From positions 1-64,000 of IMG/VR virus record IMGVR_UViG_3300019762_000005: a stretch of 64,000 bases of DNA; one strand, 5' to 3'. A program made the translations under genes and the position numbers. Numbering within the stretch: the first letter of the stretch is position 1; the number at the start of each line of letters is the position of its first letter. Shown here one piece after another: positions 3,142-64,000 of this stretch. Under the pieces are notes generated by a model. The model did no database searches and was not told the origin of the DNA. It saw nothing but the letters and a program-made list of their open reading frames with translations. This DNA comes from a virus.

Positions 3142-6100
3142 TTAAAACATCTGAAAGTCAAAGTACGATAATACTCTATCCATCTTGAATGTCTTGTTGT
3201 TATTATTTTGAAAGTAAAACTCTACTACGAAGTATGTTGAACGCATTCTTGACTTCCCAACATTACTGTGAGATGGTCTATTGTCCGTTAACTGATTGTC
3301 TCTTGGAATTTTTAGTCTCCATTTGTCAAACCTTCTTTCTATGTACTTGTTTACTGTTACTCCTCTTATCTGTCTAGTCTGAGAAAGATCTACTTTCCCT
3401 GTGTCTTGATTATCGTTATACACTCTAACTGCAGAAATTGTTTCATTTCTTAATGATGATTCTATTAAAGGATTTACAACTCCGTTAAAATCTTCATCGT
3501 AAAACGTTCCTTTGTCATGCAGCATATTAACTTTAGAGTTAAACTCTATAAATCTGAGTATCTTGTTGTAGTCAGACCTTTCGTTAACTACGATACTAAT
3601 CATAGACTCTACCGGATCGTTATCGTAATATACTCCATGTTCTCCGCAGCCGTGTCTATACACTTGAGTATTGTTCTCTGGGTTAGGAGAGAAAATAGTT
3701 CCGTTGTTATTGACGTAAATGTTTGGCCTAAACTTGTAGAAAGAGTTGAATGCGGCATTCATTTCATTAAAAGCCATTGTGTATCCAGTTCTTCTATTAA
3801 CTAAGTAAGGAGGGTTCGTTATAGCACTGTCATCTAGGTATTGTTGCCAAGTGAATCCAGCATTAAAAGTTTGAGTGGTATTGCCAGTGTATTGAACCAG
3901 CTGACCATCTATAACTATGTGCTCTCCTGGATTCAATGTCGTACCAGCCAATATAGGCTTGGTAGAGCTCGTGTCTCCATTGCTTCTTTTTTCAACCCCT
4001 AAAAAGGTATAGACAACAATCTTTTCTTTCGTATCATAAGTACAATGAACTCCTTTGTCTAGCAACGGATTGTCTCCGCCGTCAGATTTAGTCAGTAAGA
4101 CATCTTGATGTAGTGTTCTGTTGAAGAATCCATGAAAACCTTTTAAGTCGCTTATAGGTCCGTTTCCTCCTCCAGTAAACCTCATCATCTTTCTATGAGT
4201 AGCATCGAAATACCAAATACTATTGTCGGTTGCTAGAGCTCCCCATTGATGTATGCATCCGTGTTTTGTCGAGATATATCCATAATCTCGCAATCCTTGA
4301 CCTGTACCAAGCTCTGTAGATACTCCATCAGAAGCAACTACTAATGCTCTTTCATTAATCAAGAACTTTCCAAATCCTCTGTCTTGTAAGTAATAAATCT
4401 CATCATTAAGATTTAAAAGCCTATTGATTGGTCCGTACTTAGTGTCAACATCTAAATAGTTGTTTGTTCTAAATTTCGACCAAGAATCTACAGTCTCTCC
4501 ATTAATCTTTGCATCAGATATAAATGTTCTAACATCTTGAGTCTTAGGACAAGAACAATCGCTAAATTCTATAGGTTTCGGAAAGTACGTAACGTTTCTA
4601 TCTACCTCGGAATATACAGTATTGTATAGGAACATATCTCCTTCAGTACCTCCAGTCTCAACTCGTCTATAGCCATCTGGATTTCCATCATCATCATGGT
4701 CAAAAGAATTGCCTTTGTTGTAGGTGTTCCCATGAGTAAGCTCCAGATTGATTCTTGATTCCACAGGTATCATAGCTACCTCAAAGTAGGAGTCATTATC
4801 GTCAGTCACGTTAGCAGATAGTCCTCTTGTTTGAGCAAAGCTATCCCAGAACAATCTTAAGAAGTCAAAGTATCCTACATATATATCTCCTCCGAATACA
4901 GTAGTTGTAGTTGCTCCATTTCGTAAAAGGTGAGTACAAGGTATAAATACATTCGACGCTACCTTTTCTGGACCAGTTCCTCCGTATTGTTCTGTAACGT
5001 ACCTTTGGTACTCCAAAATGTTTCTTGTGAAGTTTCCTGGATTTGCGGTTGGAACATAAGCCGTATTAGCTACTCCACCTGCTACAGGGGTGCTGAATAC
5101 ATTTGCTCCCTGGTGGTTAAGTGTTAACGTAAGATTTGTACCTTGGAAAGCTCCTTGAGTATAGTCGGAAGAATCTACCGCTAATCCACCTGCACCATAG
5201 ATACCATAGTTTCTAAAGTTCTGAGTATTCACGTTTTGAAGAGCAAAGTCTCCTTGTCCTCCACCAGTTCTAACGAATCCTGTTATTATAGCGGTATTGT
5301 CTACTCCAGCAAAACCAGGAAGCCCTCCAGCAACTCTAGTTTTATCAACAACTTCTTGTCCACCTATATACCCAGGGTTTGCAGGGTTCTCTCCTGGAGT
5401 GGTAGAAGCTCCTCCTGAAGCAACATCTTCAGCACTTATATTGTTGTACAATCCTACAGATCGAATAACATCATTACCGTCAACAAATCCAGAAGTAAAA
5501 GCATTGTATGTTTGCTCTGGACTAAAGAAAGAGATCATGTCAGAATTAGAAGTTCCTCCGTTGTAATTGTTAGGAGAAGACATTGTAAATCTACTTCCTA
5601 TAGATGGGGGTGTGAAATTGACTCCTCCGTGAGTGTAGTATTTGACACCTACGCCTTGGTAAAGCTTTGTTGAATTTTGAACGTTTCTATCGACACGAAC
5701 AATTTTGTACCCTGATATTTGAGCAGTAAGACAAGCTGGTAGTGCAATCTCAAAGTCAACTCCAAGAGTAAAACCTTTTACATTTCCAAAAGCATCTACT
5801 TCTGTTATAGGAGCATTCGTAACAGACGGCATACGTATATCACCAATGTAATATACGAATGACGCTGTACCCTTTTTAGAGAAGAATACTATTCCAAAAC
5901 GATAGATTTCTCCTCGTTTATATCCGGTCTTATGACCTGCAATGTATGATGAAGCGAAATTGTCATGACGCTTTCTAACGTGTGTGTATTCAGAACTGAT
6001 ATTAAATGTCCCATCTCCAAAAGGAGTAGAACCAAATTGACTGTTCAACCCATCATCTAACAAGAACTCTTCGTTCTTAAATGTATATTTTACATAACCG

Positions 6101-28496: not shown

Positions 28497-31100
28497 CTAT
28501 TTAAGTATGCCCATTTTTTTAAAGTAGTTGCTCTGTAGGAAACTCTTTTCTACTTTGGTTGCTTCAGTCTTTATAGCTCTGTATTGAGTCTGGTCATGCC
28601 ACATTAACATACACATAGCTGATACCCTATCAAAGTTGGCATCTGGATTGTAAAGGATACATTCCTTAAGAAGTGCTGGGAACTTTATTGTACTTAACAT
28701 CCTAACGTCGCTACTCTTATTAATCTTCTCTAACATCCAAGATTTAAAGAATCTAAGACCAGTTTCATTTATAGGACCAGATGCATTTATACCTTTTGAA
28801 GTATTCGTTCCAGCTTTGTAGGTGTCTGTATTTCTAAGATGAGGAGGGGTTTCTGCTAGTAAGTATGTCTGCTTTCTGTTTTCGAAGTAAGTGTATAACC
28901 CTGGTAAATTCTTCTCATACATTAACGTACCATTGTAATATAGACATAATTTTCTACACATCTCGTAGAAGTCATTAGGATCATCTGTACGACCTGTATA
29001 TTCAGCAACTATTCTACGTGTGAATCTATTCATTACAAATACCGATGTTAGCGAGTCTGTTGATGATACTGCTTTATCAACTGTATCTCCTCCTAACAAG
29101 TAAGTTCCTGCTGGAACTTGTCCATCTACCTTTTGAGGCTTCTCTGAAATTTCTAATGCTCCAACTTTGTTTAGTGATTTCTTTGACAGTGGATAATCTC
29201 TAATTGGTTCTAATTCTGTGTCATTTTTAAACTCTACTTCTCCAGCTTCATTGAACTCCAGCTTACCAACAAAATTAGCATCTAACTCTGTACTACTGTA
29301 TTCTAATTCAGTAAGTGTGTCTTTAAGATCTGCTGCTGGAAAGAATCCTCCTTCAGACACTAAGAATATTTCTGACGGAATAAGAGGTCTGTTAATTATG
29401 AAGGAAAAGTACTTCTCTTTAGAAGATCTCTTCATTTCTTCCCTTCTGTCCTTCCAGTACTTCTCAGCCATAGTGAAGTTGGTTAACTTGTTTGGACCTT
29501 CTTTGAATCTGTTTACTGCCATTGATGCAGGAACGAAGTATCCAATCTTCTTGGATCTATTCTCCCATTGGTCGTGAAATGCTAAACAGTTGTAATCTTC
29601 TGGATTTTCAAATATCTTTTTAAGGTGAGTTACTGAGTTTCCTTTTACAAATCCTCCAGTACCAAACATATATACAGTTCCGTATTGTCTACCATCATCA
29701 GATACAGTATCTTCCAGTCCTCCAAGAACTTCCTCGATATTATTCATAAATCCAACTTCCTCAAGCGCAACCAGCGATGGTCTTGAACCTGCAGCTGCTA
29801 ATGGATCTTTCTCGAATGTCCTATGTATCAGCTTAGAAGCTGACTTTTTAGCCTCTACTGTTTGCTCTGCATTCTTGAACGAACCTTTGCTAGGAACATA
29901 AAGTGGAGACGGATAAAACTCTCCTCCAAACCATATTGATCCTGGTAGATTGTCTAATCCAATCGTAGCTTTACTTAGGAGCTCCATAGAATATTTGGCC
30001 TCTATAGCACCTACAAGAGTCTCTGATGCGAGTGGTGTTTTATTTCTTTTATTCTCCAAATAGAAGTCATAATCAATAGCTCCGTCAAACATCCAGTTAT
30101 GTCCAATCCATACTCCTGCATTGTATGATTTACCCGTATTGTGTTGAACTACATAGTCTGACTTTACAAACAAGTGATCCCCGTCAAGCTTGAATCCAAA
30201 AAACTCTCCTTTGCCTATGTACTCCATATCGAATGAAGATTCCTGCACATTGCTACGATTCGTTAACCCTTTTATCTTTATACTCGACTTATAGAGCTTT
30301 ATTGATTGCAACAAAGATTGATGTTTGAACACGATTTTGGTTCTGATATTTATGTGTTTTCCGTAGTTTGAAACCTGTAATTTATGGTTACTATTTGTTA
30401 CAAATTCATCAAATCCTCCTGTTGTAGGTTTTATCTTATACAGGTCATCTATTCCAGAGTGAGTCCATTGTACATTTCTAGGGCCTCCATCTGGACCCAT
30501 GACTACATCTCCTTTTACAATATCTTGCACAAGCTTTATAGTTCCATCGTACATGACAACCTCAGTATCTTTACCAAAGCAATCTCTACTCTCCAGATCA
30601 ATCACGTTCATTGCTGAATTCTTGTATTGAGGTTTACCCATGCTACCTTTAACATGAACCCTCCTTAAGTATTCTCTGGCTGTGACGTATTCCTTTCTTT
30701 GGCCGTTAGCTTTAAAAGCCTCTGGTACTCCTATCTTCAGCAACGCTTCGCTACCAAAATCCCGTACACCTTGCTCAAATCTAAAACAAGTCTCTTCTGT
30801 ATCTCCTTCAAATCCAGAGAACCCTCTAGCTTCAGCAAGGTTCAAATGCTTATCCCATTCAAGATCACGAATGTACGGCCTACCTAATATCTTTCCGATA
30901 GATTTTTCTGAAGACATTTTGATATGCCAAACGTTAGCAAAAGTATATAATGTTCCTGGCATCCACTTTCCGCCAACCCACATTCCTTCTATACATTTAC
31001 GCTTGACATCTCCCCAATAAGCCAACCTTTCGTACCGTTGAGATACAGGATTGTAACTAGGATGTTCCTTCGTTATAAAGTTCTGAGTGTTATATAGCAT
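28497..31100 (-). CDS. terL: Terminase large subunit (intein-containing)
   Basis: Walker A SRD|TGKS split by intein, Walker B VALEEVG, FGTGG, RNase H-like GGDT...EKN...NFDRV nuclease motifs. Confidence 0.93.
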   Translation of the reverse strand: MLYNTQNFITKEHPSYNPVSQRYERLAYWGDVKRKCIEGMWVGGKWMPGTLYTFANVWHIKMSSEKSIGKILGRPYIRDLEWDKHLNLAEARGFSGFEGDTEETCFRFEQGVRDFGSEALLKIGVPEAFKANGQRKEYVTAREYLRRVHVKGSMGKPQYKNSAMNVIDLESRDCFGKDTEVVMYDGTIKLVQDIVKGDVVMGPDGGPRNVQWTHSGIDDLYKIKPTTGGFDEFVTNSNHKLQVSNYGKHINIRTKIVFKHQSLLQSIKLYKSSIKIKGLTNRSNVQESSFDMEYIGKGEFFGFKLDGDHLFVKSDYVVQHNTGKSYNAGVWIGHNWMFDGAIDYDFYLENKRNKTPLASETLVGAIEAKYSMELLSKATIGLDNLPGSIWFGGEFYPSPLYVPSKGSFKNAEQTVEAKKSASKLIHRTFEKDPLAAAGSRPSLVALEEVGFMNNIEEVLGGLEDTVSDDGRQYGTVYMFGTGGFVKGNSVTHLKKIFENPEDYNCLAFHDQWENRSKKIGYFVPASMAVNRFKEGPNKLTNFTMAEKYWKDRREEMKRSSKEKYFSFIINRPLIPSEIFLVSEGGFFPAADLKDTLTELEYSSTELDANFVGKLEFNEAGEVEFKNDTELEPIRDYPLSKKSLNKVGALEISEKPQKVDGQVPAGTYLLGGDTVDKAVSSTDSLTSVFVMNRFTRRIVAEYTGRTDDPNDFYEMCRKLCLYYNGTLMYEKNLPGLYTYFENRKQTYLLAETPPHLRNTDTYKAGTNTSKGINASGPINETGLRFFKSWMLEKINKSSDVRMLSTIKFPALLKECILYNPDANFDRVSAMCMLMWHDQTQYRAIKTEATKVEKSFLQSNYFKKMGILK
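30138..30581 (-). mobile_element. Mini-intein (148 aa) in TerL Walker A
   Basis: Starts CFGKDTEV, block B VTNSNH, ends VQHN followed by Thr; no homing endonuclease. Confidence 0.92.
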
Positions 31101-46362: not shown

Positions 46363-48141
46363 ATGAAAGACGAAGAATTATTAAGAAAAGCAAATTGGCT
46401 GTATCCAAAAGGCACAGTATTTAACTCTTTAGGAGGGGTGAAAAACATTACAGTTGATGAGTTGAACTTAAAAAAATCAAACACAAGAACCATAGAATGT
46501 AAAGAGGGATACCTTTATAATAAAGTAGACGATAAATGGGCTGAGATAGTTTCAAGACCAAATCAATACTTCCGAGTGTCAGATGTAGGAGAATACTACC
46601 CTTCAAGATCAGAAGGAAAAAAATATCCAGGATACATACCTGAAAAATCAATGACTACAGGTCTTTATAAAGTCATAGGAAGAGAGTTTTCAGAAAATAT
46701 AGGAGAACTTTTAGTACTTTCAAATAAAAGTGGAGTGTTTTTTTACAAAGGAACTTCAAGACATCTTGAAGAAATTTCTAAAGAAGAGTATGGAGGTACA
46801 CCTGCAAATAGGTATAAAGGAGATTTAAAAGGATTCCCTACTGAAGTAGTAGAGAAAATGCTAGAATTTCAAGTAGCTCAAGGTAATAAAAGAGATGTAA
46901 CTGTGTTTGAAAATGATAAACGGGGGGTAAAAGACGATGGTGGTTTTGATTGGCGTAGTGACAACATTGTAGGTATTCCAGATTTTTTCAGTAGAGTTAT
47001 AGGTGAAAGAGATTTTAGCTTGTTCTTTAAAGTATTTCCTAATCCAGAGACTTTCTCAGGAAAGATAAAGGGATGGCCTAAAGAAATTGTACATGCTATG
47101 ATCTCTAACCAAGTAAAACAAGGTAACAAGCCAGATAAATCTATATTCGAAGAAATTCCATCAAGAAATCTTTATAATAGAGGATTTGACTGGGATAAAT
47201 CTACAGAAGGTTCACTTTTATGGGAAAAAGTTTTAGCAAATGGAAATCATAAAGCTTTCTTTGATAAAGATATTGAAGAAAGTAAGCCTGATGTAGATCT
47301 AAAAAACTTAGAAGAAGTAAAGAAAGCTATATTATCTGGAGAATTGTGGATAGATAATAATTCTAAAAAACTTAAACCTGAGGATCTAAAAAGTTTAATT
47401 TCAGAAGATACCAGAAGTAGGTGTAGTTACAAATATTACTATAAAAATTCTTTGAATGATAATATAGGGTTTTCAAATTCAGATAAGAAGAAATCGTTAA
47501 TACCAACTATAGAAGCTAAAGATCTTCAAAAAATGTTGAATGTACGTGAAGAGTTTAAAAAAGGAGAGTATATAGTCCTAATAGAAGATAATGGAAGTTC
47601 AGCTTTTAAAGGAAATCACTGTTATAAACAAGCTTGCAATAGAGGTCATATTTACGTAGAAATATCTTCTAGTCAAATTAAAAACGGTCAATGGGCTATT
47701 TATAAATTCAAAGACAAAGACAAAACTTGGAGGTATGCTACGATGTTAGAAATAGCAGAGTACAACGAAAGAGGCAAGCCTTATGACGTTAGTGAAGTGA
47801 AGCCTTTAGAATTTAAAACTGTGCCAAGATCAGCACACGCTTCTAAAGGAGGTAGACCTTCTAGCTTTGGACAAATTGTATTGTATGGAACTGGAGGTGA
47901 AGTGAATGGAAAAGGTTTCTTTGAAAAACAATTTATAACAGGTGTTGATCCAATAATTGAAGATTGCTCCGACTTTTTAACAGAGTATCCTTTTACTACT
48001 GAAGAGTCGTTCAAGAAGAAGAATTGGTCAAGACAATTAGTATCAGATCATTTTTCACCAATAAAAGAAAAACAAGAGGCAGAGGTAAGCCTTCGATTAC
48101 CTAGTGAAATAAATATTTACAAACATTTAAAAAACCATTAA
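46363..48141 (+). CDS. Mosaic multi-domain protein A (592 aa) with TerL-like motif segment
   Basis: Internal duplication (KG[FW]PxE[VI]VxxM..QVxQGNK..GFDW x2); modules shared with 51942..53723; TerL-like motifs at aa 492-550. Confidence 0.75.
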   Translation: MKDEELLRKANWLYPKGTVFNSLGGVKNITVDELNLKKSNTRTIECKEGYLYNKVDDKWAEIVSRPNQYFRVSDVGEYYPSRSEGKKYPGYIPEKSMTTGLYKVIGREFSENIGELLVLSNKSGVFFYKGTSRHLEEISKEEYGGTPANRYKGDLKGFPTEVVEKMLEFQVAQGNKRDVTVFENDKRGVKDDGGFDWRSDNIVGIPDFFSRVIGERDFSLFFKVFPNPETFSGKIKGWPKEIVHAMISNQVKQGNKPDKSIFEEIPSRNLYNRGFDWDKSTEGSLLWEKVLANGNHKAFFDKDIEESKPDVDLKNLEEVKKAILSGELWIDNNSKKLKPEDLKSLISEDTRSRCSYKYYYKNSLNDNIGFSNSDKKKSLIPTIEAKDLQKMLNVREEFKKGEYIVLIEDNGSSAFKGNHCYKQACNRGHIYVEISSSQIKNGQWAIYKFKDKDKTWRYATMLEIAEYNERGKPYDVSEVKPLEFKTVPRSAHASKGGRPSSFGQIVLYGTGGEVNGKGFFEKQFITGVDPIIEDCSDFLTEYPFTTEESFKKKNWSRQLVSDHFSPIKEKQEAEVSLRLPSEINIYKHLKNH

Positions 48142-51941: not shown

Positions 51942-53723
51942 ATGAAAATAGAAGATTTAAAACCTGGTCAATTTATCGCTATAGAAAGCTGCCCAGGAGG
52001 AGTTTACATGAGTCCAGATGGGAAAATATCAGGAAACAGCATTAAAGCTTTGTATGAAGACTTATATTTCACTTGTTCTCTTGAAGTAGATGAAGAAGAA
52101 GGAGACGAACCTCTAGGAGAAATAACAGTCCTTAATAACGATTCTTTAGAAGCTATACAATTGAAAGCTTGCATTGAAAAAGACAAATATGTTAGCCTAG
52201 AAGATGCTGCATTAGATTACGCTAGAAAACATTATCCTGTTGGAACTAAATTCAGTCCAGCTCACACCGACGATACTTACGATAAGGAAAATCAATGCAT
52301 AATCACAAGTGATGGTCAATTCCACTTAGAATACGGGGTTATTTGCAACTCTATTAATGGAGATTGTTGGACTAGCTTAGAAAATCCTAAGTATGGAAAT
52401 ACAACAAAGAATAGAAATGTATTCTATAAAGGAATATGGGCTAAAAAAGAACCAGCTAATGAAGAGAGAGCTCAGTCTATACGCAAACATCCGATAATTA
52501 AGAAAGGAATGTATATTGTTATTCTTGATGATGCTAAAGGGCTTATCCCAGGAAGACACGTTTATAGGCAAAAAAAAGACAACAGTAGAGTTTGTCCAGA
52601 ATTAGACATTATAGAAGGTAATAATAATGAAAGAATAAGTGTTAAACCTTGGAGATACGCTACTGAAGAAGAAATAAAACATTACGATGCTATAGGTAAA
52701 CCTTATGATGTTACAATGCCTAGAGCTGTAGTGGATTCAGTTTTAGGTAAGTTTACTGTTGGAAAATGGTATTCAAATCCAAAGAACAGGCACATGGATT
52801 ACGGAAGAGTTTCAAAAGCTGAAGTAAAGGGCTCTTCCCACAGATACAACACGATTCATTTTGACTCAATTGTAAAAGATGGAGTTCAGTCAGATTATAA
52901 AGGTACTCAAAGTAACCTTAATTTCGATAGAGAAATGAGAGAGATAGATTTTGATGATATTCCTATTAAGTCTAATAATGGACAAGAAGAGCTTATAGTT
53001 GGAAAATGGTATTATTACAATAAGTATTACATAAAATTCTTAAAAGTAGAAAGAGGGCTAGTAATATCAAGTGAGTCGATAGACGATAAAGGCTATCACA
53101 TATTTAAAGAAGAGCCTTATGGTCCTCTTGAGATGAATAAGGGACAGTATGAATCTGCAAACATGAGAGGTGTAGAAATATTACTACCATCTGGACATCC
53201 TGAAAAGAAAACTATAACTCTTAGAGAGCTTAAAGATGGGGAAACGTACTTCTTCGATTACGTAACCGGTAAGTACATAAATAAGATAACCGACAAGAGT
53301 CGTCATCTATGCACTTCAATAGAAGTTTGCGGAGATGAAGAAATTCCAAAGCTTAATACTGGATCTATGTACGGAACAGCACATATTAGAGTTGCAACAA
53401 AGGAGGAAAAGCATTGGATGAATCTTTGTATCAAAAAAAATAAAGGTATATCTTTGTCTGAAGCAAGGTTAGAAGATAAAAAGGATTTAGAGTTAGCTCT
53501 TGAAAAAGAAGAAGGTAAAAAGGAATATGAATTTCCTGGAAGAATAGAATTAAGAATAAGCAACAATAGCAACACAACGGTAAAAACAAAGAAAAGATCA
53601 GTACCGATTAGCGTATCTAAAAGCTTAGAGTTAAAAATAGAGGTACGTACACCTAAAAAAAGTACAGAATTATTAACTAATAAAAGAACCACCTCGTTAA
53701 AAATAAGAGGTAAAAACAATTGA
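51942..53723 (+). CDS. Mosaic multi-domain protein B (593 aa)
   Basis: Shares YP.GT.F...WA and KKG.YIV...WRYAT..EI..Y...GKPYDV modules with 46363..48141; VGKWY repeated. Confidence 0.75.
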   Translation: MKIEDLKPGQFIAIESCPGGVYMSPDGKISGNSIKALYEDLYFTCSLEVDEEEGDEPLGEITVLNNDSLEAIQLKACIEKDKYVSLEDAALDYARKHYPVGTKFSPAHTDDTYDKENQCIITSDGQFHLEYGVICNSINGDCWTSLENPKYGNTTKNRNVFYKGIWAKKEPANEERAQSIRKHPIIKKGMYIVILDDAKGLIPGRHVYRQKKDNSRVCPELDIIEGNNNERISVKPWRYATEEEIKHYDAIGKPYDVTMPRAVVDSVLGKFTVGKWYSNPKNRHMDYGRVSKAEVKGSSHRYNTIHFDSIVKDGVQSDYKGTQSNLNFDREMREIDFDDIPIKSNNGQEELIVGKWYYYNKYYIKFLKVERGLVISSESIDDKGYHIFKEEPYGPLEMNKGQYESANMRGVEILLPSGHPEKKTITLRELKDGETYFFDYVTGKYINKITDKSRHLCTSIEVCGDEEIPKLNTGSMYGTAHIRVATKEEKHWMNLCIKKNKGISLSEARLEDKKDLELALEKEEGKKEYEFPGRIELRISNNSNTTVKTKKRSVPISVSKSLELKIEVRTPKKSTELLTNKRTTSLKIRGKNN

Positions 53724-54194: not shown

Positions 54195-54228
54195 AAATGG
54201 GAGCTGTATATCAGTTCCCATTTTTTTT
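54195..54228 (+). terminator. Intrinsic terminator
   Basis: AATGGGAGCTG-TATAT-CAGTTCCCATT plus T run. Confidence 0.8.
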
Positions 54229-54262
54229 ACCAATTCTGACACCCAAAAAAAAAGATAATATC

Positions 54263-54763
54263 ATGAGAACAATAGAAATGTATTGCGATGGAGGAGCGAG
54301 ACCTACCAATCCTGGAACAGCTGCTAACGCTTTTTGTGTTATAGAAAATGAAGAGTTGTTGGATAGTGATTCTGAATTTCACGAACACGCCACTAATAAC
54401 CAAATGGAACTTAAAGCTCCTATAAATGGGTTGAGGTTGATTGCTTCTATTTTTAAGCAGGAGCCTAAAGAGTCTATGCCTAAAAAGGTACTTATACATG
54501 TTGATTCTCAATATGTAAACAAAGGGATAAGCGAATGGATATTTGGATGGATAAAGAAAGGTTGGAAAACGGCCTCAAGAAAACCAGTCAAGAATAAAGA
54601 CTTATGGATTGATCTACTTAAAGCCTCTGAAAAAGTTCAGAAGATAGGGATAGAAGTAGAGTTTAAATGGGTAAAGGCCCACAATGGAAATAAATTTAAC
54701 GAAATGGTAGACTCAATGTGTACTGAATGCATAACTGTAAATACAAAAAAAAATGAGCAATAA
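54263..54763 (+). CDS. rnhA: Ribonuclease HI (likely start ATG 54263)
   Basis: YCDGG, TNNQMEL, DSQYV, WIKKGWK..PVKNKDLW, WVKAH..NEMVD. Confidence 0.93.
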   Translation: MRTIEMYCDGGARPTNPGTAANAFCVIENEELLDSDSEFHEHATNNQMELKAPINGLRLIASIFKQEPKESMPKKVLIHVDSQYVNKGISEWIFGWIKKGWKTASRKPVKNKDLWIDLLKASEKVQKIGIEVEFKWVKAHNGNKFNEMVDSMCTECITVNTKKNEQ

Positions 54764-55764: not shown

Positions 55765-56017
55765 GAGGTATTTTAGACCTCCAGTATCAGGATATTACCA
55801 AGACTTTACGTTTTGGGACTATATGAGTCAGTATTTGTTTCTGTACGTATTAATAGCGATAGGAATATCACTAATGCATATATTCGATATGGCTCACAAG
55901 TTAGGATTAACGTACTTTTTGTTAATCTGGGGATTTTTGTGGTTTTGTGGCGGAATATATACATGGAATCACGACTTTAAGAAACGTCAAGAAAAGGACA
56001 AATGGAAGAAGTTTTAG
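55748..56017 (+). CDS. 2-TM membrane protein
   Basis: Two hydrophobic helices. Confidence 0.6.
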   Translation: MMKRIRRYFRPPVSGYYQDFTFWDYMSQYLFLYVLIAIGISLMHIFDMAHKLGLTYFLLIWGFLWFCGGIYTWNHDFKKRQEKDKWKKF

Positions 56018-56406
56018 CAGTTTTTTTAATCGTAAAAGCAATATCTGTATTCCTGTTGATGTATTCAGCAGGATACAGTAAAGCTTGCATGGATATAGTT
56101 CAACACAAATACAGTAGAAGTATATTTAGCTTAAGAAATAATCCTGGTTATTACAATCCAAAAGAATCCTGGAAAAGAAAACACGAGAAGAAAAGTTGGT
56201 TGTATAAAACCGTACTTGTATGGACTACTGATTTTTGGCACAAAAAAGGAATGCATTACTCAGTGTCTCTTTCTCTTGGTTTTTTTCTGATAGGAACAGG
56301 ATTCAATGAAAATCCTATAGCAACTTTGATCGTGTTTTTAGCATGTCAATATTACTATAGGGTTGTTTTTGAATATAATTACTCAATAAAACTAATGATA
56401 AAATGA
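56002..56406 (+). CDS. Membrane protein
   Basis: TM segments, SWKRK..TDFWH motif. Confidence 0.65.
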   Translation: MEEVLAVFLIVKAISVFLLMYSAGYSKACMDIVQHKYSRSIFSLRNNPGYYNPKESWKRKHEKKSWLYKTVLVWTTDFWHKKGMHYSVSLSLGFFLIGTGFNENPIATLIVFLACQYYYRVVFEYNYSIKLMIK

Positions 56407-56804
56407 GCAAAAAAAAAACGAAAGAAGACGAAGAAAGAACGTATAATTACGTAAAACTAGCAATTGCTACTCAGGTTATAATAGAGATGCAAGCCGAATT
56501 AAGAAACACAAACGTCTTCAATGGTAAGGCTAAGAATGCAGCTCTAGTAATTAGAAAACAAGCTAGTCATGATATAGAGAAGGATATTATAGGTATATAC
56601 GAAAGAGATAGCGATACTGCTAATAGCTTAATATCTGGAATAGAAACTGTAGCATCTCAACTAGCTACTCTTGACGTAAAAAGAATAGCTAATATGTCTC
56701 TTATTATTAAGAGAATAGAAGATCAAAATTGTATGCTTATAGATAGAGGTTATTATGAAGAGCTCGAAAAGATAAAAGAAAAATACAATAAACTTAAGAA
56801 GTGA
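56403..56804 (+). CDS. Hypothetical helical protein
   Basis: Overlapping start/stop with neighbours. Confidence 0.65.
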   Translation: MSKKKTKEDEERTYNYVKLAIATQVIIEMQAELRNTNVFNGKAKNAALVIRKQASHDIEKDIIGIYERDSDTANSLISGIETVASQLATLDVKRIANMSLIIKRIEDQNCMLIDRGYYEELEKIKEKYNKLKK

Positions 56805-57220
56805 TGGGACTAGAAGAGATAATAGGGTCTAACGAGATACTAGAAGAGTCTTCAATGTTTACTTGCTGGTTAAATGAAGAGGAAGAGTACTGCATGCATG
56901 TAAGAGGGTTGACTATTACCGACTTTTCTACTGACGAAAAAGGAGTGTTTTCTGGAGATATTGTTGAGCTTTTTGGCAAGACAGAAGTAATTCTCAATAC
57001 AAATACTACTCAAAGCTTAAAATCATTAATGGATGAAGTTTGTGCCTCTATTCGCAATATTACTATTAAAGACGGAGGGACGGAAGGTATGTCTCTTGTA
57101 TTAGATGCAGATAATAGGTTAACTCAGTTTGAAAATTATCAAATCTACAGATTTAGAACAATAAAATCTATTCAAATTGTAGGTGACAATCAATTAGTGT
57201 TAACATCTTACAAATTATAA
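56801..57220 (+). CDS. Hypothetical acidic protein
   Basis: Overlapping start; directly upstream of polB. Confidence 0.6.
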   Translation: MMGLEEIIGSNEILEESSMFTCWLNEEEEYCMHVRGLTITDFSTDEKGVFSGDIVELFGKTEVILNTNTTQSLKSLMDEVCASIRNITIKDGGTEGMSLVLDADNRLTQFENYQIYRFRTIKSIQIVGDNQLVLTSYKL

Positions 57221-57221
57221 T

Positions 57222-59042
57222 ATGACAAAGAAAAGAAGTAAATTTTTATACAGCTTGGAGTCTTTTAATGATTTATTTTGCGTTGTTTTTTTAAATACAG
57301 AGACAAAGGTCCACTTGTTTTATCAGATTAGTGAAAAGAATAATATGGTTGAAAAACTACAGAAATTTCTGATTAGCGGTATTCAATTGATAGGATACAA
57401 TAGCATTGGTCATGATTATCAGTTGTTGCACGAAATAGTACTAGCTGATAACAATATAGGGCCCGGTTATATTCGTAAGATTTCAAAAGAAATATTGAAA
57501 GGAGAAAGAGCTATAAGCAATTCCAGTATATTTCCTCAATTAGATCTTTACAGGATAAACGGATATAACTCTAAAAAAATACCATTAAGTTGGTTGCAAT
57601 TTTCTTACGGTAGAAAAGTAATAAGATCTATCCCTGTTCATAAAGATTATCTTTTAAAGAATGTCGACCATCCTTCTATAATTGATAGCTGTAGAGAGAA
57701 TGTAGATTTCTTGAATGAGATTTACGAGAATTCAAAGCCAGCTATTAGAAAAAGAATGGCTTTATCTAAAGAGCTTGGAAACAAGGTAATGAATATGTCA
57801 AACAGTAAAATTGGAGAGTTACTGATAAGGACTGAATTTGAAAAAATATCAGCAAAGACAATTAAAAAAGGAATGAAAACCAGTTCGGTAGAATCTATAA
57901 AACTTTCTGAAGTAATACCTGATGATATTGAATATAATCATGTAGAGCTAAAAAAGTTTGTATCTAGGTTGTCTAAACTTGAAATACATCCAAAAGATAG
58001 TCTTACTACGGATATTGACCTAGACGGACTTGTTATCACATTTTCAAAAGGAGGCTTGCACACCAACGATGTCTCAGGAGTTATAGAGAATACTAAAGGA
58101 GCACTTGAAGAGCATGATGTAATATCAATGCACTCTAGCACCATTGTTAACGAATCTATAGCTCCTAGACATTTAGGTAGGCCTTGGATTAAAGCTGTTG
58201 GAAAAGTTAAAGACATGCGAATGGAGACTATAAGAAAAGACCCTTTAAAGAAAGAGGTGTTTTTCAAAGAAGCCTTAAACGCAGGTTCTTACGGAAAGTT
58301 GAATTATGCTCCATCTTGGCAGTACGACCCTTTAGCCTCCTATAAAACAACGATAATTGGGGAACTTAGGATGTTGGAATTGATCGACAAGCTAATAGCT
58401 ATGGATGTTGAAGTGATTAGTGTAAATAATGACGGTCTAGTATTACATTATTCGGATTGGGATGAAAACCTAGTAGCTGATGTTATAGGTGCTTGGGAGT
58501 CAAAGAATGGATACTCTACAAAGAAAACTACTTTAAAAAAAATAGTTTATAACGGTATAAATAACTATATTGGATTCCTTACTGATGGACATCTACTTAA
58601 AGGTCAATTTGCTATTAACAAGAGCAAAGCTAAAGACAATTCTAGGAAGATAATTCCAATAGCACTGTTTGAGTATTTTGTGAATGGTAAATCCATAAAA
58701 GAAACAATAACCAACCATAAGAATATATTAGATTTTTGTGTTGGTTTGAAAGCTAAAGGTAAGGTGTACTGGATGTCTGACGAAGAAAATCCCATGAAAA
58801 TAGAAAGAGAAGTTATAAGGTATTTCGTCTCTAACGATTCTGTGAAAATATTTGAAGAAGACATTAGAGGTAACAAGATTCCTTTAGAAAAAGGATTAAA
58901 CATTACTATGTTTATGGAGGTTATAGAAGATGTTGATTATAATGTCAATTACAATTATTACATAAACGAATGCTCGAAGATTATTAGATCAGTAGAAGCA
59001 AGAAGAGACGATAAGAATTATAAACAAGAAAAACTATTTTAA
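57222..59042 (+). CDS. polB: Family B DNA polymerase (crAss type) with altered catalytic motifs
   Basis: GYN..HD, GGLH, motif A HDVISMHS, motif B KEALNAGSYGK, YDP, motif C NNDG, NNY, KGQF, C-terminal NYNYYI. Confidence 0.85.
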   Translation: MTKKRSKFLYSLESFNDLFCVVFLNTETKVHLFYQISEKNNMVEKLQKFLISGIQLIGYNSIGHDYQLLHEIVLADNNIGPGYIRKISKEILKGERAISNSSIFPQLDLYRINGYNSKKIPLSWLQFSYGRKVIRSIPVHKDYLLKNVDHPSIIDSCRENVDFLNEIYENSKPAIRKRMALSKELGNKVMNMSNSKIGELLIRTEFEKISAKTIKKGMKTSSVESIKLSEVIPDDIEYNHVELKKFVSRLSKLEIHPKDSLTTDIDLDGLVITFSKGGLHTNDVSGVIENTKGALEEHDVISMHSSTIVNESIAPRHLGRPWIKAVGKVKDMRMETIRKDPLKKEVFFKEALNAGSYGKLNYAPSWQYDPLASYKTTIIGELRMLELIDKLIAMDVEVISVNNDGLVLHYSDWDENLVADVIGAWESKNGYSTKKTTLKKIVYNGINNYIGFLTDGHLLKGQFAINKSKAKDNSRKIIPIALFEYFVNGKSIKETITNHKNILDFCVGLKAKGKVYWMSDEENPMKIEREVIRYFVSNDSVKIFEEDIRGNKIPLEKGLNITMFMEVIEDVDYNVNYNYYINECSKIIRSVEARRDDKNYKQEKLF

Positions 59043-59043
59043 C

Positions 59044-59841
59044 ATGGATTGCACAAGGTTGAAAGATTATGATTTAATAATACTTAATACAAGCGCAGGT
59101 AAGGATTCTCTAGTAATGATGTGGGACATCTTAAGAAGAGCAAAAAAGGAAAACTACCCAATTGAAAGAATAGTGTGCTCACATCAAGACTTAGGTAGGT
59201 TCGAATGGCCAGGAACAAAAGTTCTTGTTGAGACTCAAGCTAGTATATTTGGATTAAAGACTTATTATTCTAAAAGAAGAAACAAGGACGGATACGAAGA
59301 AAACCTGCTTGAATATGTTTTAAGAAGAAGGAAGTGGCCATCTAATAAACAAAGATGGTGTACTAGCGACTTTAAAAGAGGTCCTGGAGCAAGAGTAGTG
59401 ACTAAATTAACTAAAGATTTAGGCAAATGCAAAGTTTTATATGTGTTCGGATTTAGAAGCCAGGAAAGCCCTGCAAGAGCTAAAAAAAATGTTATAGAAA
59501 TAAACAAAAATCTATCAACAAAAAACAGGACGGTACATACTTTTAATCCTATTCTAGGGATGGACATAAAGAAAGTTTGGAGAATAATAAAATTATTCAA
59601 ACTTCCTTACCATTATGCTTATGACTTAGGAATGCCTAGACTTTCTTGTATATTTTGTATATTTTCTCCGTTTGACGCTTTAGTTATAGCTGGTATCGAA
59701 AATATGGAATTACTGGAAGAATATATTTCTGTTGAAGAAGAAATAAATCATACTTTTAGAGATAAGTTTTCGTTAAAAGAGGTTAGAAAAAGCATAGAAG
59801 AAGGGTATAGACCTAAAGGAATTCCAGACTGGGTTATGTAA
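59044..59841 (+). CDS. PAPS reductase family (PP-loop, Fe-S) protein
   Basis: SAGKDS, RWCTSDFK, GFRSQESPAR, RLSCIFC. Confidence 0.88.
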   Translation: MDCTRLKDYDLIILNTSAGKDSLVMMWDILRRAKKENYPIERIVCSHQDLGRFEWPGTKVLVETQASIFGLKTYYSKRRNKDGYEENLLEYVLRRRKWPSNKQRWCTSDFKRGPGARVVTKLTKDLGKCKVLYVFGFRSQESPARAKKNVIEINKNLSTKNRTVHTFNPILGMDIKKVWRIIKLFKLPYHYAYDLGMPRLSCIFCIFSPFDALVIAGIENMELLEEYISVEEEINHTFRDKFSLKEVRKSIEEGYRPKGIPDWVM

Positions 59842-60532: not shown

Positions 60533-60731
60533 AATGACAAGAAAAACAAGAGATTTCGCAGAGTGCGAGACTCACGGTGTTACCAATTTTGAAGAAAATT
60601 CGTTCAAGAACTGTGACGAAAATTGCGAGATCTACAAGATAGGAACTATCACGGAAACTAGAGTAGCGACAACTACTCCTAAAAAGAGACAAGCATGGAC
60701 TCTAACAGAACTGAAAGACAAAAAGGATTAG
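60525..60731 (+). CDS. Small hypothetical protein (start uncertain)
   Basis: CxxH...CxxC; bridges to helicase gene. Confidence 0.45.
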   Translation: MSKMTRKTRDFAECETHGVTNFEENSFKNCDENCEIYKIGTITETRVATTTPKKRQAWTLTELKDKKD

Positions 60732-61873
60732 TCCTTGATTGGTTTTCTGCAAAAATGAAAGGTGTAGTATTAGCTGCTACTGGATTTGGAAAATCAAGAG
60801 TTGGACTACTAGCTATAAAAAGAGCTATAAAAGTCAAGGAATTAAAATCTTGCTTAATAATAGTTCCTTCAATAGGATTAAAAATACAATGGGAAAAGCT
60901 AGTTGCGGAAGCAGGTATTAACATTGTAGATGTAATGGTGATAAATACTGCAGCTAATAGAGCTGAAAATCTAAAGTATGAACTAGTGATATATGATGAA
61001 TTTCATAGAGCTGGTTCAGAGTTTTTTATAAAGGCTTTAGAAATTAAAAAAAAATATATCCTTGGTCTTACTGCTACGCTAGAAAGGCCTGATAACACTC
61101 ACTTGGAGTTGGTAAAAATAGCTCCTGTAATTGGAGAAGTTAAACTTGATGAGTGTTTAATAAAAGGATGGGTAAGTAATTATAGGATACTAAATTTAAT
61201 AGTTCCATTTACTAAAAAAGAAAGAGCAGCTCATGAAACAGCTGTTGGAACTTACGAGTACTACAATAAGCTTTGTACTGGAAATGGTAGATACGCTTTT
61301 GAAAATGCTAGAAGTTGGATTAAAGGTAGTGAGCCTACGTTAAAAAGGCAAGCTGCTAAATATTACAACGCTTTGAGAACAAAGAATGATTTAGCGAAGT
61401 ACAACGTGAACAAGATAGCTGTTATAGAAGACATTGTGAATAATAATTTTAGAGATAGAAAAGGATTCATATTCAGTACTTCTATAGAATTCGCTACCGA
61501 CTTGCAAGGTCTGATAGATAAGAAATCTATAATGTATCATAGTAAACTGAAGAAGAAAGAAAAGGAAAAGGCTGTAAAAATGTTTATTTCTGGGAAGAAA
61601 ACAGTATGCAATGCTGTTCAATCTATGAATGAAGGTCTTGATTTTCCAGACGCTTCTTTAGCTATTATACTAGACTCGGATAGTTCGGTAAGAAAAGCTA
61701 GACAGCAATTAGGAAGAATAATTAGAGCTACTGAAGATCCTGATAAGGTAGCAACGTTAATCAATGTTTGTTCGGAAGATTCCGTAGAAAATGGGTGGGC
61801 GGATAAGAAATTTCAGGGATTAAAAACAAAAACTGTCACTATTGACAAGTTAAAACTAATACTTAATGAGTAA
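60695..61873 (+). CDS. Superfamily 2 helicase
   Basis: ATGFGKS, DEFH, GLTAT, NEGLD, QQLGRIIR. Confidence 0.9.
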   Translation: MDSNRTERQKGLVLDWFSAKMKGVVLAATGFGKSRVGLLAIKRAIKVKELKSCLIIVPSIGLKIQWEKLVAEAGINIVDVMVINTAANRAENLKYELVIYDEFHRAGSEFFIKALEIKKKYILGLTATLERPDNTHLELVKIAPVIGEVKLDECLIKGWVSNYRILNLIVPFTKKERAAHETAVGTYEYYNKLCTGNGRYAFENARSWIKGSEPTLKRQAAKYYNALRTKNDLAKYNVNKIAVIEDIVNNNFRDRKGFIFSTSIEFATDLQGLIDKKSIMYHSKLKKKEKEKAVKMFISGKKTVCNAVQSMNEGLDFPDASLAIILDSDSSVRKARQQLGRIIRATEDPDKVATLINVCSEDSVENGWADKKFQGLKTKTVTIDKLKLILNE

Positions 61874-62423
61874 GATTGAAGTAGACCTTGTTAAATGTCA
61901 ACTAAACAATATTACTCCTAGCGATTATGTTTTGATACACCTCATGTATCACAGGGATTACAAAAGGATAGAAGGAATTTTCACTAGAAAAGGAGCTTCT
62001 GAGATCAAAAATGGACTAATAGGAAGCAAGTATATACTTAGCGGAAGAGAAGTTCCATTCAAAGAGACAATCCTTAGTTTGAAGAATGTTAAGTCCTTAT
62101 TGAATATCAAAGATGATACATTCGATTTTTGGAAATGGTATAGTATATATCCTCATAAAGTTGGATCGAGAATCCTTAGAGCTACTACACATGGCTCTAA
62201 AGCTGCAACGGACCACGAAAAGAAGTATAGACGAGTCGTTAAATCAATCGAGCATCACGATGAAATTTGCAAAAGGACTGAAAACTATGTAGAATCGCAA
62301 AGGATAGCTGAAAAGTTACCATATTTGCCGGCAATACTAACGGTTCTTAATGGTAGATTATGGGAGCAATGGGACGATATTGAAAAAGAGGAAGACGCAG
62401 CATGGAATCAGACGCTTATATAA
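61866..62423 (+). CDS. Conserved protein upstream of DnaB (possible initiator/loader)
   Basis: FDFWKWYSIYP...LNGRLWE, DnaD/replication-protein C-terminal-like pattern; synteny. Confidence 0.55.
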   Translation: MSKIEVDLVKCQLNNITPSDYVLIHLMYHRDYKRIEGIFTRKGASEIKNGLIGSKYILSGREVPFKETILSLKNVKSLLNIKDDTFDFWKWYSIYPHKVGSRILRATTHGSKAATDHEKKYRRVVKSIEHHDEICKRTENYVESQRIAEKLPYLPAILTVLNGRLWEQWDDIEKEEDAAWNQTLI

Positions 62424-64000
62424 AGAAGATATTACAAAACATCGAGAGAGGGAAGCAAGGTCTTAATGTTGGGTTGCCAATGGGTCTTAAAAGATTGGGC
62501 TCAGTGATAAGCAATATTCAGCCAAAAACGTACACTATTATATCTGGTGGAACTGGTTGTTACGACAGTAATACTGAGTACTTCAATGGAAAGCAATGGA
62601 AGTTCTTTAGTGACTATAAAAAAGGAGAGAAAGTCTTAATGTATAACGGTGACGGAACTGCAGAGTTAGTAATTCCTTCTGAATACATAAAGAAAAAAGC
62701 TTCTTACTTCTATAACTTCAAGAGCAAATACGGAATAGACCAGATGATTTCTGGAGAGCATACCGTGATTACTCTTTCAAAGCAGGGAAGTATAGTTAAA
62801 ACTAGAGCTGATAAGTTTGTTGAAGATCATAACAAGACATCAAGAGGGTCTAAAAAAGCATTTATAACTACGTTTAGGTACAAGCCTGAAAAAGAGATAG
62901 ATGTTAGTAAAGATTTGATAAGGAATTATATAGGCGCAAGAACTAAAGTTTTTCCTGATGAATGGTACAATATGTCTAGTTCTAGTTTGAAAGTTTTTCA
63001 TGACGAGCTTAAATACTGGGATGGTAGTATACCTAAGAATAGTAGCAAGCTGTACTCGTACTCTTCTAATAACAAGAAGAATATCGACTTCGTTCAGTTT
63101 GTCTGTTCCTCTTTAGGGTATAGAGCTAGTGTACACGTAGATGAAAGGTATGAGAATAAGAACTATACTATTTATCAATCCAATAGAACGAAGCCTATGA
63201 TGGTTAATTCTTTAGGAGTTGACAAGATAGATAAAGTCTATAACCACGATGGAATGAAATACTGTTTTACTGTTCCTTCAGGAATGTTAGTAACAAGAAG
63301 AAATGATTGTATAACTATATCTGGGAATACAGGAAAGACAGCTTTCGTTGATACAGCCTACGTTTCAAACCCTTACAGACATATATTGACAGGTAATAAC
63401 ATTTACGATTTGGAGGTTATTTATTTTTCGTTAGAGATAGATCCAGAACAGAAAATAACAAAGCTTATAGCTAATAAGTTATGGGCTGATTATGGATTAA
63501 AAACTACCGTAGGAGAGATACTTTCAAAAGGAGATAAAAGAATACCGCTAGAGGTCGATAGAGCTATAGGTGAAACTACTGATTATTTTGTCAAAATGGG
63601 AGACAAGATTAAGTATAGGAGTGCAGCTAGTCCAGATTATATCTATAGAGAGTTAATGAACTACGCTAAGAAAAGAGGTAAAATTACATTGAACGATAAG
63701 GGAATAGTTATTAACTATCAACCTCATAATCCAATGTTAGTAACCTTAGTTATTGTAGATCATATAGGTCTTATAAAGCCAAACTCTAAAGATAGAAACC
63801 TTAAAGAAGCTATAGATAGAGCTTCTAAAACGTTGATATACTTTAGGAATATATTTGGATTTGCTCCAGTTGTTGTTTCTCAGTTCAATAGAGCCATAGA
63901 GGGGCACGACAGGATGAAAGGCGATAACGAACCTAAGCTTAGTGATTTGAAAGAGTCTGGAGGCCCTAGTGAAGATGCTAATCTTGTTATAGGATTGTAC
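62402..64000 (+). CDS. dnaB: Replicative DnaB-like helicase, intein-containing, partial
   Basis: Not in ORF track; MESDAYIKK...GGTG|intein|TGKT, YFSLE, VIVDHIGL, VSQFNR, PKLSDLKESG; open to window end. Confidence 0.9.
   Translation, partial: MESDAYIKKILQNIERGKQGLNVGLPMGLKRLGSVISNIQPKTYTIISGGTGCYDSNTEYFNGKQWKFFSDYKKGEKVLMYNGDGTAELVIPSEYIKKKASYFYNFKSKYGIDQMISGEHTVITLSKQGSIVKTRADKFVEDHNKTSRGSKKAFITTFRYKPEKEIDVSKDLIRNYIGARTKVFPDEWYNMSSSSLKVFHDELKYWDGSIPKNSSKLYSYSSNNKKNIDFVQFVCSSLGYRASVHVDERYENKNYTIYQSNRTKPMMVNSLGVDKIDKVYNHDGMKYCFTVPSGMLVTRRNDCITISGNTGKTAFVDTAYVSNPYRHILTGNNIYDLEVIYFSLEIDPEQKITKLIANKLWADYGLKTTVGEILSKGDKRIPLEVDRAIGETTDYFVKMGDKIKYRSAASPDYIYRELMNYAKKRGKITLNDKGIVINYQPHNPMLVTLVIVDHIGLIKPNSKDRNLKEAIDRASKTLIYFRNIFGFAPVVVSQFNRAIEGHDRMKGDNEPKLSDLKESGGPSEDANLVIGLY
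62558..63328 (+). mobile_element. Intein (257 aa) in DnaB Walker A with remnant LAGLIDADG endonuclease
   Basis: Starts CYDSNTE, block B ISGEH, ELKYWDGS (one LAGLIDADG-like motif), block F YCFTVPSG, ends SGN followed by Thr. Confidence 0.9.

Follow-up and report, generated by a model that had tools for sequence, protein, structure and literature searches.

The sole polymerase of a complete crAss-like phage genome is a family B enzyme with a degenerate exonuclease site and histidine at the steric gate

To our knowledge, the steric gate is Tyr or Phe in all characterized family B DNA polymerases (PolBs), and the replicases of double-stranded DNA viruses almost always proofread. In the catalytic subunits of eukaryotic Pol alpha and Pol zeta and in archaeal B2 PolB, the exonuclease fold is kept and its catalytic residues are lost (PMC7544198); these enzymes act beside proofreading replicases and keep the gate Tyr. 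A "crAss-like" PolB group has also been described (Kazlauskas et al. 2020), divergent within the EpsilonN-like clade and set apart by profound differences in MotifC and KxY (PMC7544198). Here we describe a PolB gene at positions 57222 to 59042 (+) of a 64,000-nucleotide stretch of viral DNA, called the window below, that corresponds to bases 1-64000 of the single 92,675-bp IMG/VR record IMGVR_UViG_3300019762_000005. Its product, P0001, shares with Pol alpha, Pol zeta and archaeal B2 the kept exonuclease fold with lost catalytic residues, and differs from them in being the only polymerase of its genome and in having a changed gate. With a probability of roughly 0.6, we read P0001 as a sole, clamp-tethered, non-proofreading family B replicase with a remodeled sugar pocket. 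The crAss-like PolB group and exonuclease-dead PolBs were already known; their combination in a sole replicase and a His gate in family B are new. In the papers that treat crAss-type PolBs (PMC7544198, PMC7886860, PMC11348598), we found neither exonuclease loss nor a His gate mentioned.

The frame is open throughout and encodes 606 amino acids (aa). Motif coordinates were checked by re-translating the exact window positions. An earlier note, made from the DNA sequence by itself, had read the ExoI and ExoIII motifs, the His codon of motif A, motif C, the retained Asp residues, motif B and the intact frame; re-translation confirmed all of these readings. The gene and its motifs are as follows.

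57222..59042, +: family B DNA polymerase gene (P0001), "crAss-like" PolB group, from phrog_1252 and AlphaFold2/Foldseek; the single phrog_1252 match genome-wide.
57249..57260, +: ExoI, YSLE; catalytic Asp replaced by Ser11, Glu13 retained (family column Asp in 99%).
57399..57416, +: ExoII, NSIGHD; Asn60 and Asp65 retained, aromatic F/Y replaced by His64 (family alignment and translation).
57687..57704, +: ExoIII, SCRENV; Tyr156 replaced by Ser, Asn159 by Glu and the catalytic Asp160 by Asn (family Tyr in 99%, Asp in 98%).
58116..58139, +: motif A, DVISMHSS; catalytic Asp299 retained, gate Tyr replaced by His304 (CAC, 58131-58133), Pro305 by Ser (family alignment).
58266..58298, +: motif B, KEALNAGSYGK; Lys349, Asn353, Tyr357 and Gly358 retained (columns invariant or near-invariant).
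58425..58436, +: motif C, NNDG, aligning with DTDS of Pol alpha; catalytic Asp404 retained, Thr403 replaced by Asn, unique among 314 sequences.
59025..59039, +: C-terminal QEKLF, a pentapeptide of the beta-sliding-clamp-binding type (family tail count and complex model).

All catalytic polymerase residues are present in P0001. The DEDDy exonuclease set is incomplete: it has lost two of the four DEDD carboxylates together with the ExoIII Tyr, which leaves E13 and D65. At the motif A gate, P0001 has His304-Ser305 and lacks the Tyr/Phe-Pro by which a standard PolB motif A is recognized. Since several independent codon changes lie within an intact frame, these substitutions are not read errors. 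In phi29, T4/RB69 and Klenow, replacing a single DEDD carboxylate is enough to abolish proofreading, and this mutagenesis argues that exonuclease activity would be lost in P0001. The suggestion of the earlier note that the polymerase is error-prone, in the sense of having no proofreading, is thus well supported at the level of sequence by the missing carboxylates and Tyr and by the loss of three carboxylates in the nearest relative, P0061 (below). The same note took NTDG as the canonical motif C; this holds for the crAss-like group, but not for PolBs in general, in which the motif is DTDS. The alignment to Pol alpha shows that the first motif C Asp is Asn throughout the crAss-like family. The first Asp is likewise missing from piPolB, hence Asn at this position is compatible with activity (PMC7544198).

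P0001 is a genuine PolB and belongs to the crAss-like group, which corresponds to phrog_1252 ("DNA polymerase"). Against PHROGs, its residues 2-601 match phrog_1252 with an E value of 8e-96. Neither P0001 nor the whole genome gave an above-gathering polymerase match to Pfam PF00136, PF03175 or PF10108, and a PDB search with the single P0001 sequence gave no match, so a family profile was required instead. Pfam misses P0001 because the whole crAss-like PolB group is too divergent; just 1 of 58 and 5 of 120 P0001 relatives carry a precomputed Pfam match. The family profile, built from 27 sequences, matches solved PolBs (Pol alpha, KOD/9N/Tgo and Pol II) with E values of ~1e-7. In its alignments, the motif B region pairs with Pol alpha and KOD (E 1e-7), the family N-T-D-G with the D-T-D-S of Pol alpha, and the family D-V-G-S-M-Y-P with L-D-F-R-S-L-Y-P-S (403-411) of the Thermococcus-type PolB, D404 of which is the counterpart of P0001 D299. 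The family Tyr thereby falls on Y409 of LDFRSLYPS, which places it at the steric gate, just as the earlier note had said of the motif A Tyr. The AlphaFold2 model of P0001 has a predicted local distance difference test score (pLDDT) of 87.4 and a predicted template modeling score (pTM) of 0.82, and Foldseek matched it over its full length to KOD/9N/Tgo PolB, E. coli Pol II and Pol alpha (E 1e-14, probability 1.00). Fold and profile matches together bear out the assignment to family B. Relatives are numerous and distant: 3373 relatives were found at E<1e-3, and tblastn with P0001 matched 795 phage records, every one at <30% identity, among them Maribacter phage Panino, Salmonella phage 9NA, YuA/Kaya-like Pseudomonas phages, Seuratvirus, Rheinheimera barbaviruses and several Crassvirales.

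To place the substitutions within the family, an alignment of 314 relatives was drawn from searches of 5.8 billion proteins and 1.84 billion representatives. The ExoI Asp is found in 99% of these sequences, the ExoIII Tyr and Asp in 99% and 98%, the motif A Pro in 99% and the motif C Thr in 99%; the gate is Tyr in 309 of 314 and His in the other 5. The deviations of P0001 are far beyond chance, since the columns affected are the most conserved in the family. D299, K349, G358, N402 and D404, which are invariant in the 314 relatives, are all retained. With the crAss-like group, P0001 shares full-length homology, domain order, the single-Asp motif C, motif B, the QxxLF tail and location in a replication module. 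It differs from the named members cr272_1 (YP_010113488.1), Panino (WZE63574.1) and 9NA gp65, whose polymerases are canonical at every questioned site: they carry ExoI D-x-E, ExoII N..D, ExoIII Y..D and motif A S-[MY]-Y-P, whereas P0001, at most 29% identical to any of them, has S-x-E, S..N (ExoIII), S-M-H-S and N-N-D-G. The Panino polymerase (3503-6061 of the Panino sequence), which comes from the closest named relative, is 852 aa long and begins with an N-terminal extension of ~170 aa that P0001 and most family members lack.

The earlier note had allowed that the true replicase might lie outside the window. This idea was rejected, as the complete genome holds neither a second polymerase nor another phrog_1252 copy. 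The record is complete, with a 123-bp terminal overlap and a CheckV value of 100%. Its major capsid protein shares 31% identity with those of Bacteroides crAss phages, all 119 matches being crAss-type, and portal and TerL genes were found. In the whole 92.6-kb genome, we found no PolA, PolB, protein-primed PolB or Pol III alpha besides P0001, which is the sole polymerase of this complete crAss-like phage genome. Also missing genome-wide were matches to stand-alone 3'-5' exonucleases of the DnaQ/RNase_T, PolA-exo, PolB-exo2 and RNase_H_2 types (PF00929, PF01612, PF10108 and PF13482), and a search of the genome for a phage beta clamp (PF00712, PF02768) found none. One candidate polymerase paralog, at 46363-48141, came from weak recurrent tblastn matches; it was rejected at an hhalign probability of ~1% as a repeat-bearing protein. 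The proteins encoded at 46363-48141 and 51942-53723 are each ~592 aa long and have in common a W-R-Y-A-T...G-K-P-Y-D-V module, with private internal repeats; neither is a polymerase (hhalign probability ~1%).

QLxLF is the consensus for binding to the bacterial beta clamp. Among 298 family members, 122 (~41%) carry a C-terminal Qxx[LMIF]F tail, in most cases QLxLF; examples are QLELF in Crassvirales cr272_1 and QTSLF in Maribacter phage Panino. A complex of P0001 residues 560-606 with the E. coli beta clamp was modeled and scored 0.63, the best control scoring 0.00; the clamp was taken from another host as a stand-in, and solved structures of similar peptide complexes already exist, so the model shows likeness only. 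Among solved complexes, 51 of 78 reach a score of 0.63, as do 2 of 108 mismatched pairs. Contacts are shared between runs to at least 91%, with a partner pLDDT of 65 or more, and the modeled residues 597-606 occupy the canonical cleft, at clamp residues 172-177, 242, 247 and 360-366. The QEKLF tail would fit a processive, replicative role that uses the host beta clamp. Given the Qxx[LM]F tails and the phage genome encoding no clamp, the PolB family probably borrows that of the host.

The closest relative of P0001 among ~15 billion proteins is P0061, a 600-aa protein on a 96.6-kb contig that is 41% identical to it. P0061 is exonuclease-dead by other replacements, having lost three carboxylates (ExoI D to K, ExoII D to E and ExoIII D to T). 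Its motif A reads D-V-F-S-M-H-G-S-T-I, so that S-M-H-x-S-T-I is common to both proteins. Thus the substitutions are not unique to this assembly, whereas uniqueness is what the earlier note had named as refuting its reading; judged from P0061, the exonuclease loss and His gate are inherited. The two proteins are sisters with support of 1.0, and their stem measures 0.86 substitutions per site, compared with a 99th percentile of 0.61 for internal branches. The next nearest proteins to P0061, P0212-P0215, have canonical motifs. Because the substitutions at the common dead exonuclease site differ and S-M-H-x-S-T-I is shared, the comparison suggests that the loss of proofreading and of the Tyr-Pro pair predates the split between P0001 and P0061. 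On the stem of the pair, then, proofreading would have been lost and the gate Tyr-Pro changed to His-Ser/Gly; after the split, the exonuclease residues would have drifted while the new motif A was kept.

Despite 41% identity, P0001 and P0061 both retain D299, D404, K349, N353, G358 and R333 (P0001 numbering), conservation between them is highest in the palm/fingers (46% identity), and their last seven residues, YKQEKLF, are identical. The ratio of exonuclease to polymerase identity for the pair is 0.82, at the 40th percentile of family pairs with similar divergence. Because this ratio is ordinary, the exonuclease domain as a whole appears to be constrained and would survive in a scaffolding role, like its counterparts in Pol alpha and Pol zeta. 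No more members of this His-gate, exonuclease-dead subclade were returned by protein-pattern searches of IMG/VR with P0001 and with P0061. The two-sequence alignment, searched against Joint Genome Institute (JGI) metagenomes and IMG/VR, gave only relatives of at most 26% identity, and a word search of the motif A region through 5.8 billion proteins found P0001 itself only.

Each of the two changes also occurs apart from the other in the family. Exonuclease loss is found in about five lineages: P0001/P0061, P0186/P0287, P0158, P0154 and P0090, the last four of which have lost exonuclease catalytic residues and retain the gate Tyr. Root-to-tip paths are longer in the exonuclease-loss lineages than in the rest (Mann-Whitney p ~0.001, one value per lineage, midpoint root), with three of the five at or above the 97th percentile; P0186/P0287, P0158 and P0154 lie at the 88th-99th percentile, and P0090 is not longer than usual. 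A His gate is present in two further clusters from other metagenomes, P0185 and P0092/P0210, with intact exonuclease motifs, the Pro kept and branches of normal length (motif A being DVGSQHP in P0185 and DVASLHP in P0210). From this distribution, the His gate appears to have arisen at least three times, twice in enzymes with intact proofreading motifs. Its recurrence would be easy, since one transition turns a Tyr codon (TAY) into a His codon (CAY). An enzyme that is otherwise normal and, from its motifs, predicted to proofread can clearly accommodate His, and it is exonuclease loss, not His, that fast polymerase evolution accompanies.

The polymerase gene lies within a tightly packed, co-directional replication block, the contents of which include an RNase HI, a phosphoadenosine phosphosulfate (PAPS)-reductase-like protein, a helicase, a DnaB-like helicase, a primase, a PD-(D/E)XK nuclease, a uracil-DNA glycosylase (UDG)-superfamily protein and a MazG-like pyrophosphatase. 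The annotated neighbors in the window are listed here.

54197..54763, +: RNase HI gene (PF00075, E 2e-29; phrog_531).
59044..59841, +: PAPS-reductase-like gene, starting 1 nt past the polymerase stop codon (PF01507, E 5e-13; phrog_424).
60695..61873, +: helicase of the replication module (phrog_16, E 5e-38).
62402..64000, +: DnaB-like replicative helicase, the gene continuing to 64222 past the window end (phrog_19, phrog_32482).

Immediately upstream, at 56002-57220, three overlapping open reading frames (ORFs) of 134, 133 and 139 aa abut the polymerase start and have no PHROG or Pfam match; these may be new replication accessory proteins. At 72412-75585 of the genome, the PD-(D/E)XK nuclease, UDG-superfamily and MazG-like pyrophosphatase genes are clustered downstream of a ubiquitin-like operon, possibly as a uracil/dUTP-sanitizing set for a non-proofreading replicase. 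Homologues of the PAPS-reductase-like protein are scattered among unrelated phages, and the gene is absent from the polymerase flanks, taken up to 10 kb, in the loci of 18 relatives. Elsewhere, the TerL gene (28497-31100, -; 867 aa) matches the TerL profile in two stretches, and its otherwise unmatched N-terminal region of ~400 aa, which matches an unknown PHROG, may be an insertion or a fused domain. Giant ORFs of 1262 aa and 3618 aa lie at 76-91 kb of the genome.

We infer catalytic activity, exonuclease loss and clamp use for P0001, which most probably remains the replicase of the phage, with QEKLF as its tether to the host beta clamp. Its polymerase center would be intact, its 3'-5' exonuclease center dead and its exonuclease domain retained as a scaffold; replication by this enzyme would lack intrinsic proofreading and make use of a remodeled sugar-binding pocket. 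Several points weigh against this. The subclade is known from two sequences only, P0001 and P0061. P0001 retains 25 of the 34 family-conserved palm/fingers columns, whereas the family mean is 96%, and the unique T403N in motif C could mean reduced or altered catalysis. For the crAss-like PolB group as a whole, polymerase activity is a prediction. Moreover, some crAss-like phages lack a polymerase gene altogether (PMC7886860), so bulk replication is not necessarily the task of a phage-encoded polymerase. This last point, together with the long stem branch and the loss of 9 of 34 conserved palm/fingers columns, lends some credit to an accessory or specialized role, in which host Pol III would replicate the genome via the phage helicase and primase and P0001 would serve in lesion bypass, gap filling or extension of RNA primers; indeed, exonuclease-dead PolBs with rearranged active sites, such as archaeal B2, have been read as translesion enzymes (PMC7544198). 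We nevertheless consider such a role unlikely: the gene occupies the canonical polymerase slot of a full replication module and retains the clamp-binding-type tail typical of replicative family members, and no crAss-like phage has been reported with two polymerases (PMC7886860), from which it would follow that P0001 descends from a replicase. That P0001 is instead a decaying or non-catalytic remnant kept as a scaffold is the least probable account of all. The many lost columns and the long branch are what would be expected of decay, but the frame is intact, metal-ligand and triphosphate-binding residues have been kept in two lineages 41% identical, the palm/fingers are the best-conserved part of the pair (46%), and the model is confident (pLDDT 87).

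Two further alternatives accept an active polymerase and concern its fidelity and substrate. Proofreading could persist, either because the altered exonuclease site works or because an unrecognized phage or host exonuclease acts in trans. Glu13, Asn60 and Asp65 do remain in a domain under normal constraint, and the small ORFs at 56002-57220 have no family assignment and might supply the missing activity. Nonetheless, P0061 has replaced other catalytic residues, as would be expected if selection had already ceased to act on the site; no RNase_T/DnaQ, PolA-exo, PolB-exo2 or RNase_H_2 domain was found genome-wide; and at 133-139 aa the upstream ORFs are short for a DEDD fold. Persistent proofreading is thus very unlikely in our estimate. 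Less credible still is that the pocket change and exonuclease loss allow the use of a modified deoxyribonucleoside triphosphate (dNTP), possibly made with the PAPS-reductase-like protein. That gene lies 1 nt from the polymerase in a pairing absent from the 18 relatives' loci, and MazG-like and UDG-superfamily genes are present. However, unrelated phages often carry PAPS-reductase-like genes, it is the 2' position of the sugar and not the base that the steric gate contacts, and no thymidylate synthase-like, DpdA, PurZ, glycosyltransferase or aminotransferase match was found among the ~50 ORFs screened. The adjacent PAPS-reductase-like gene is what points to modified-nucleotide use, and we find no support beyond it.

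The effect of His304 on sugar selection in a non-proofreading replicase can be approached by analogy, and the precedents for it conflict: in PrimPol, Y100H opens the gate, whereas in PolD and PolC, His is a working gate. Human PrimPol Y100H is likewise a change of Tyr to His at the residue facing the 2' position of the sugar; the mutant uses nucleoside triphosphates (NTPs) about as efficiently as dNTPs and raises tolerance to dNTP depletion, and enzymes of the archaeo-eukaryotic primase (AEP) superfamily with His at the Y100 site are proficient NTP users (PMC6362072). PrimPol has an AEP fold and another pocket geometry, so that the effect is not transferable to P0001. The steric gate of PolD is His931, which positions the dNTP as well (PMC7708050), and His1275/His1268 is the proposed gate of PolC (PMC13492167). 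Both place His beside the incoming sugar in a replicative polymerase that excludes ribonucleoside triphosphates (rNTPs), but they belong to families D and C, with active-site architectures unrelated to family B. Natural variation of a sugar-pocket residue with phenotypic effect is also on record for phage PolA at Klenow position 762 (Phe/Tyr/Leu; bioRxiv 10.64898/2026.05.20.726624), in family A, where the residue has another role (3' position/discrimination against dideoxynucleoside triphosphates). On these analogies, the relaxed sugar selectivity proposed in the earlier note is possible, at odds below even: His304 may materially relax discrimination against rNTPs. A fuller scheme, decidedly unlikely, would make P0001 a natural counterpart of PrimPol Y100H, in which His304 opens the gate, the phage replicates from the rNTP pool under a dNTP-depletion defense, and RNase HI cleans up the resulting ribonucleotide-rich DNA.

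In sum, a 92-kb phage appears to rely on one polymerase without proofreading and without a Tyr/Phe gate, and P0061, at 41% identity, indicates that this proofreading-less, His-gate state has long been stable. If P0001 is active in the way proposed here, it would be a natural test of the size limit for a DNA genome copied without proofreading, of what His does at a family B gate, and of whether phages tune nucleotide selectivity, for example against dNTP-depletion defenses. His-gate polymerases could also serve in the synthesis of modified nucleic acids. The recurrence of His gates elsewhere in this phage PolB family suggests that they are a wider theme.

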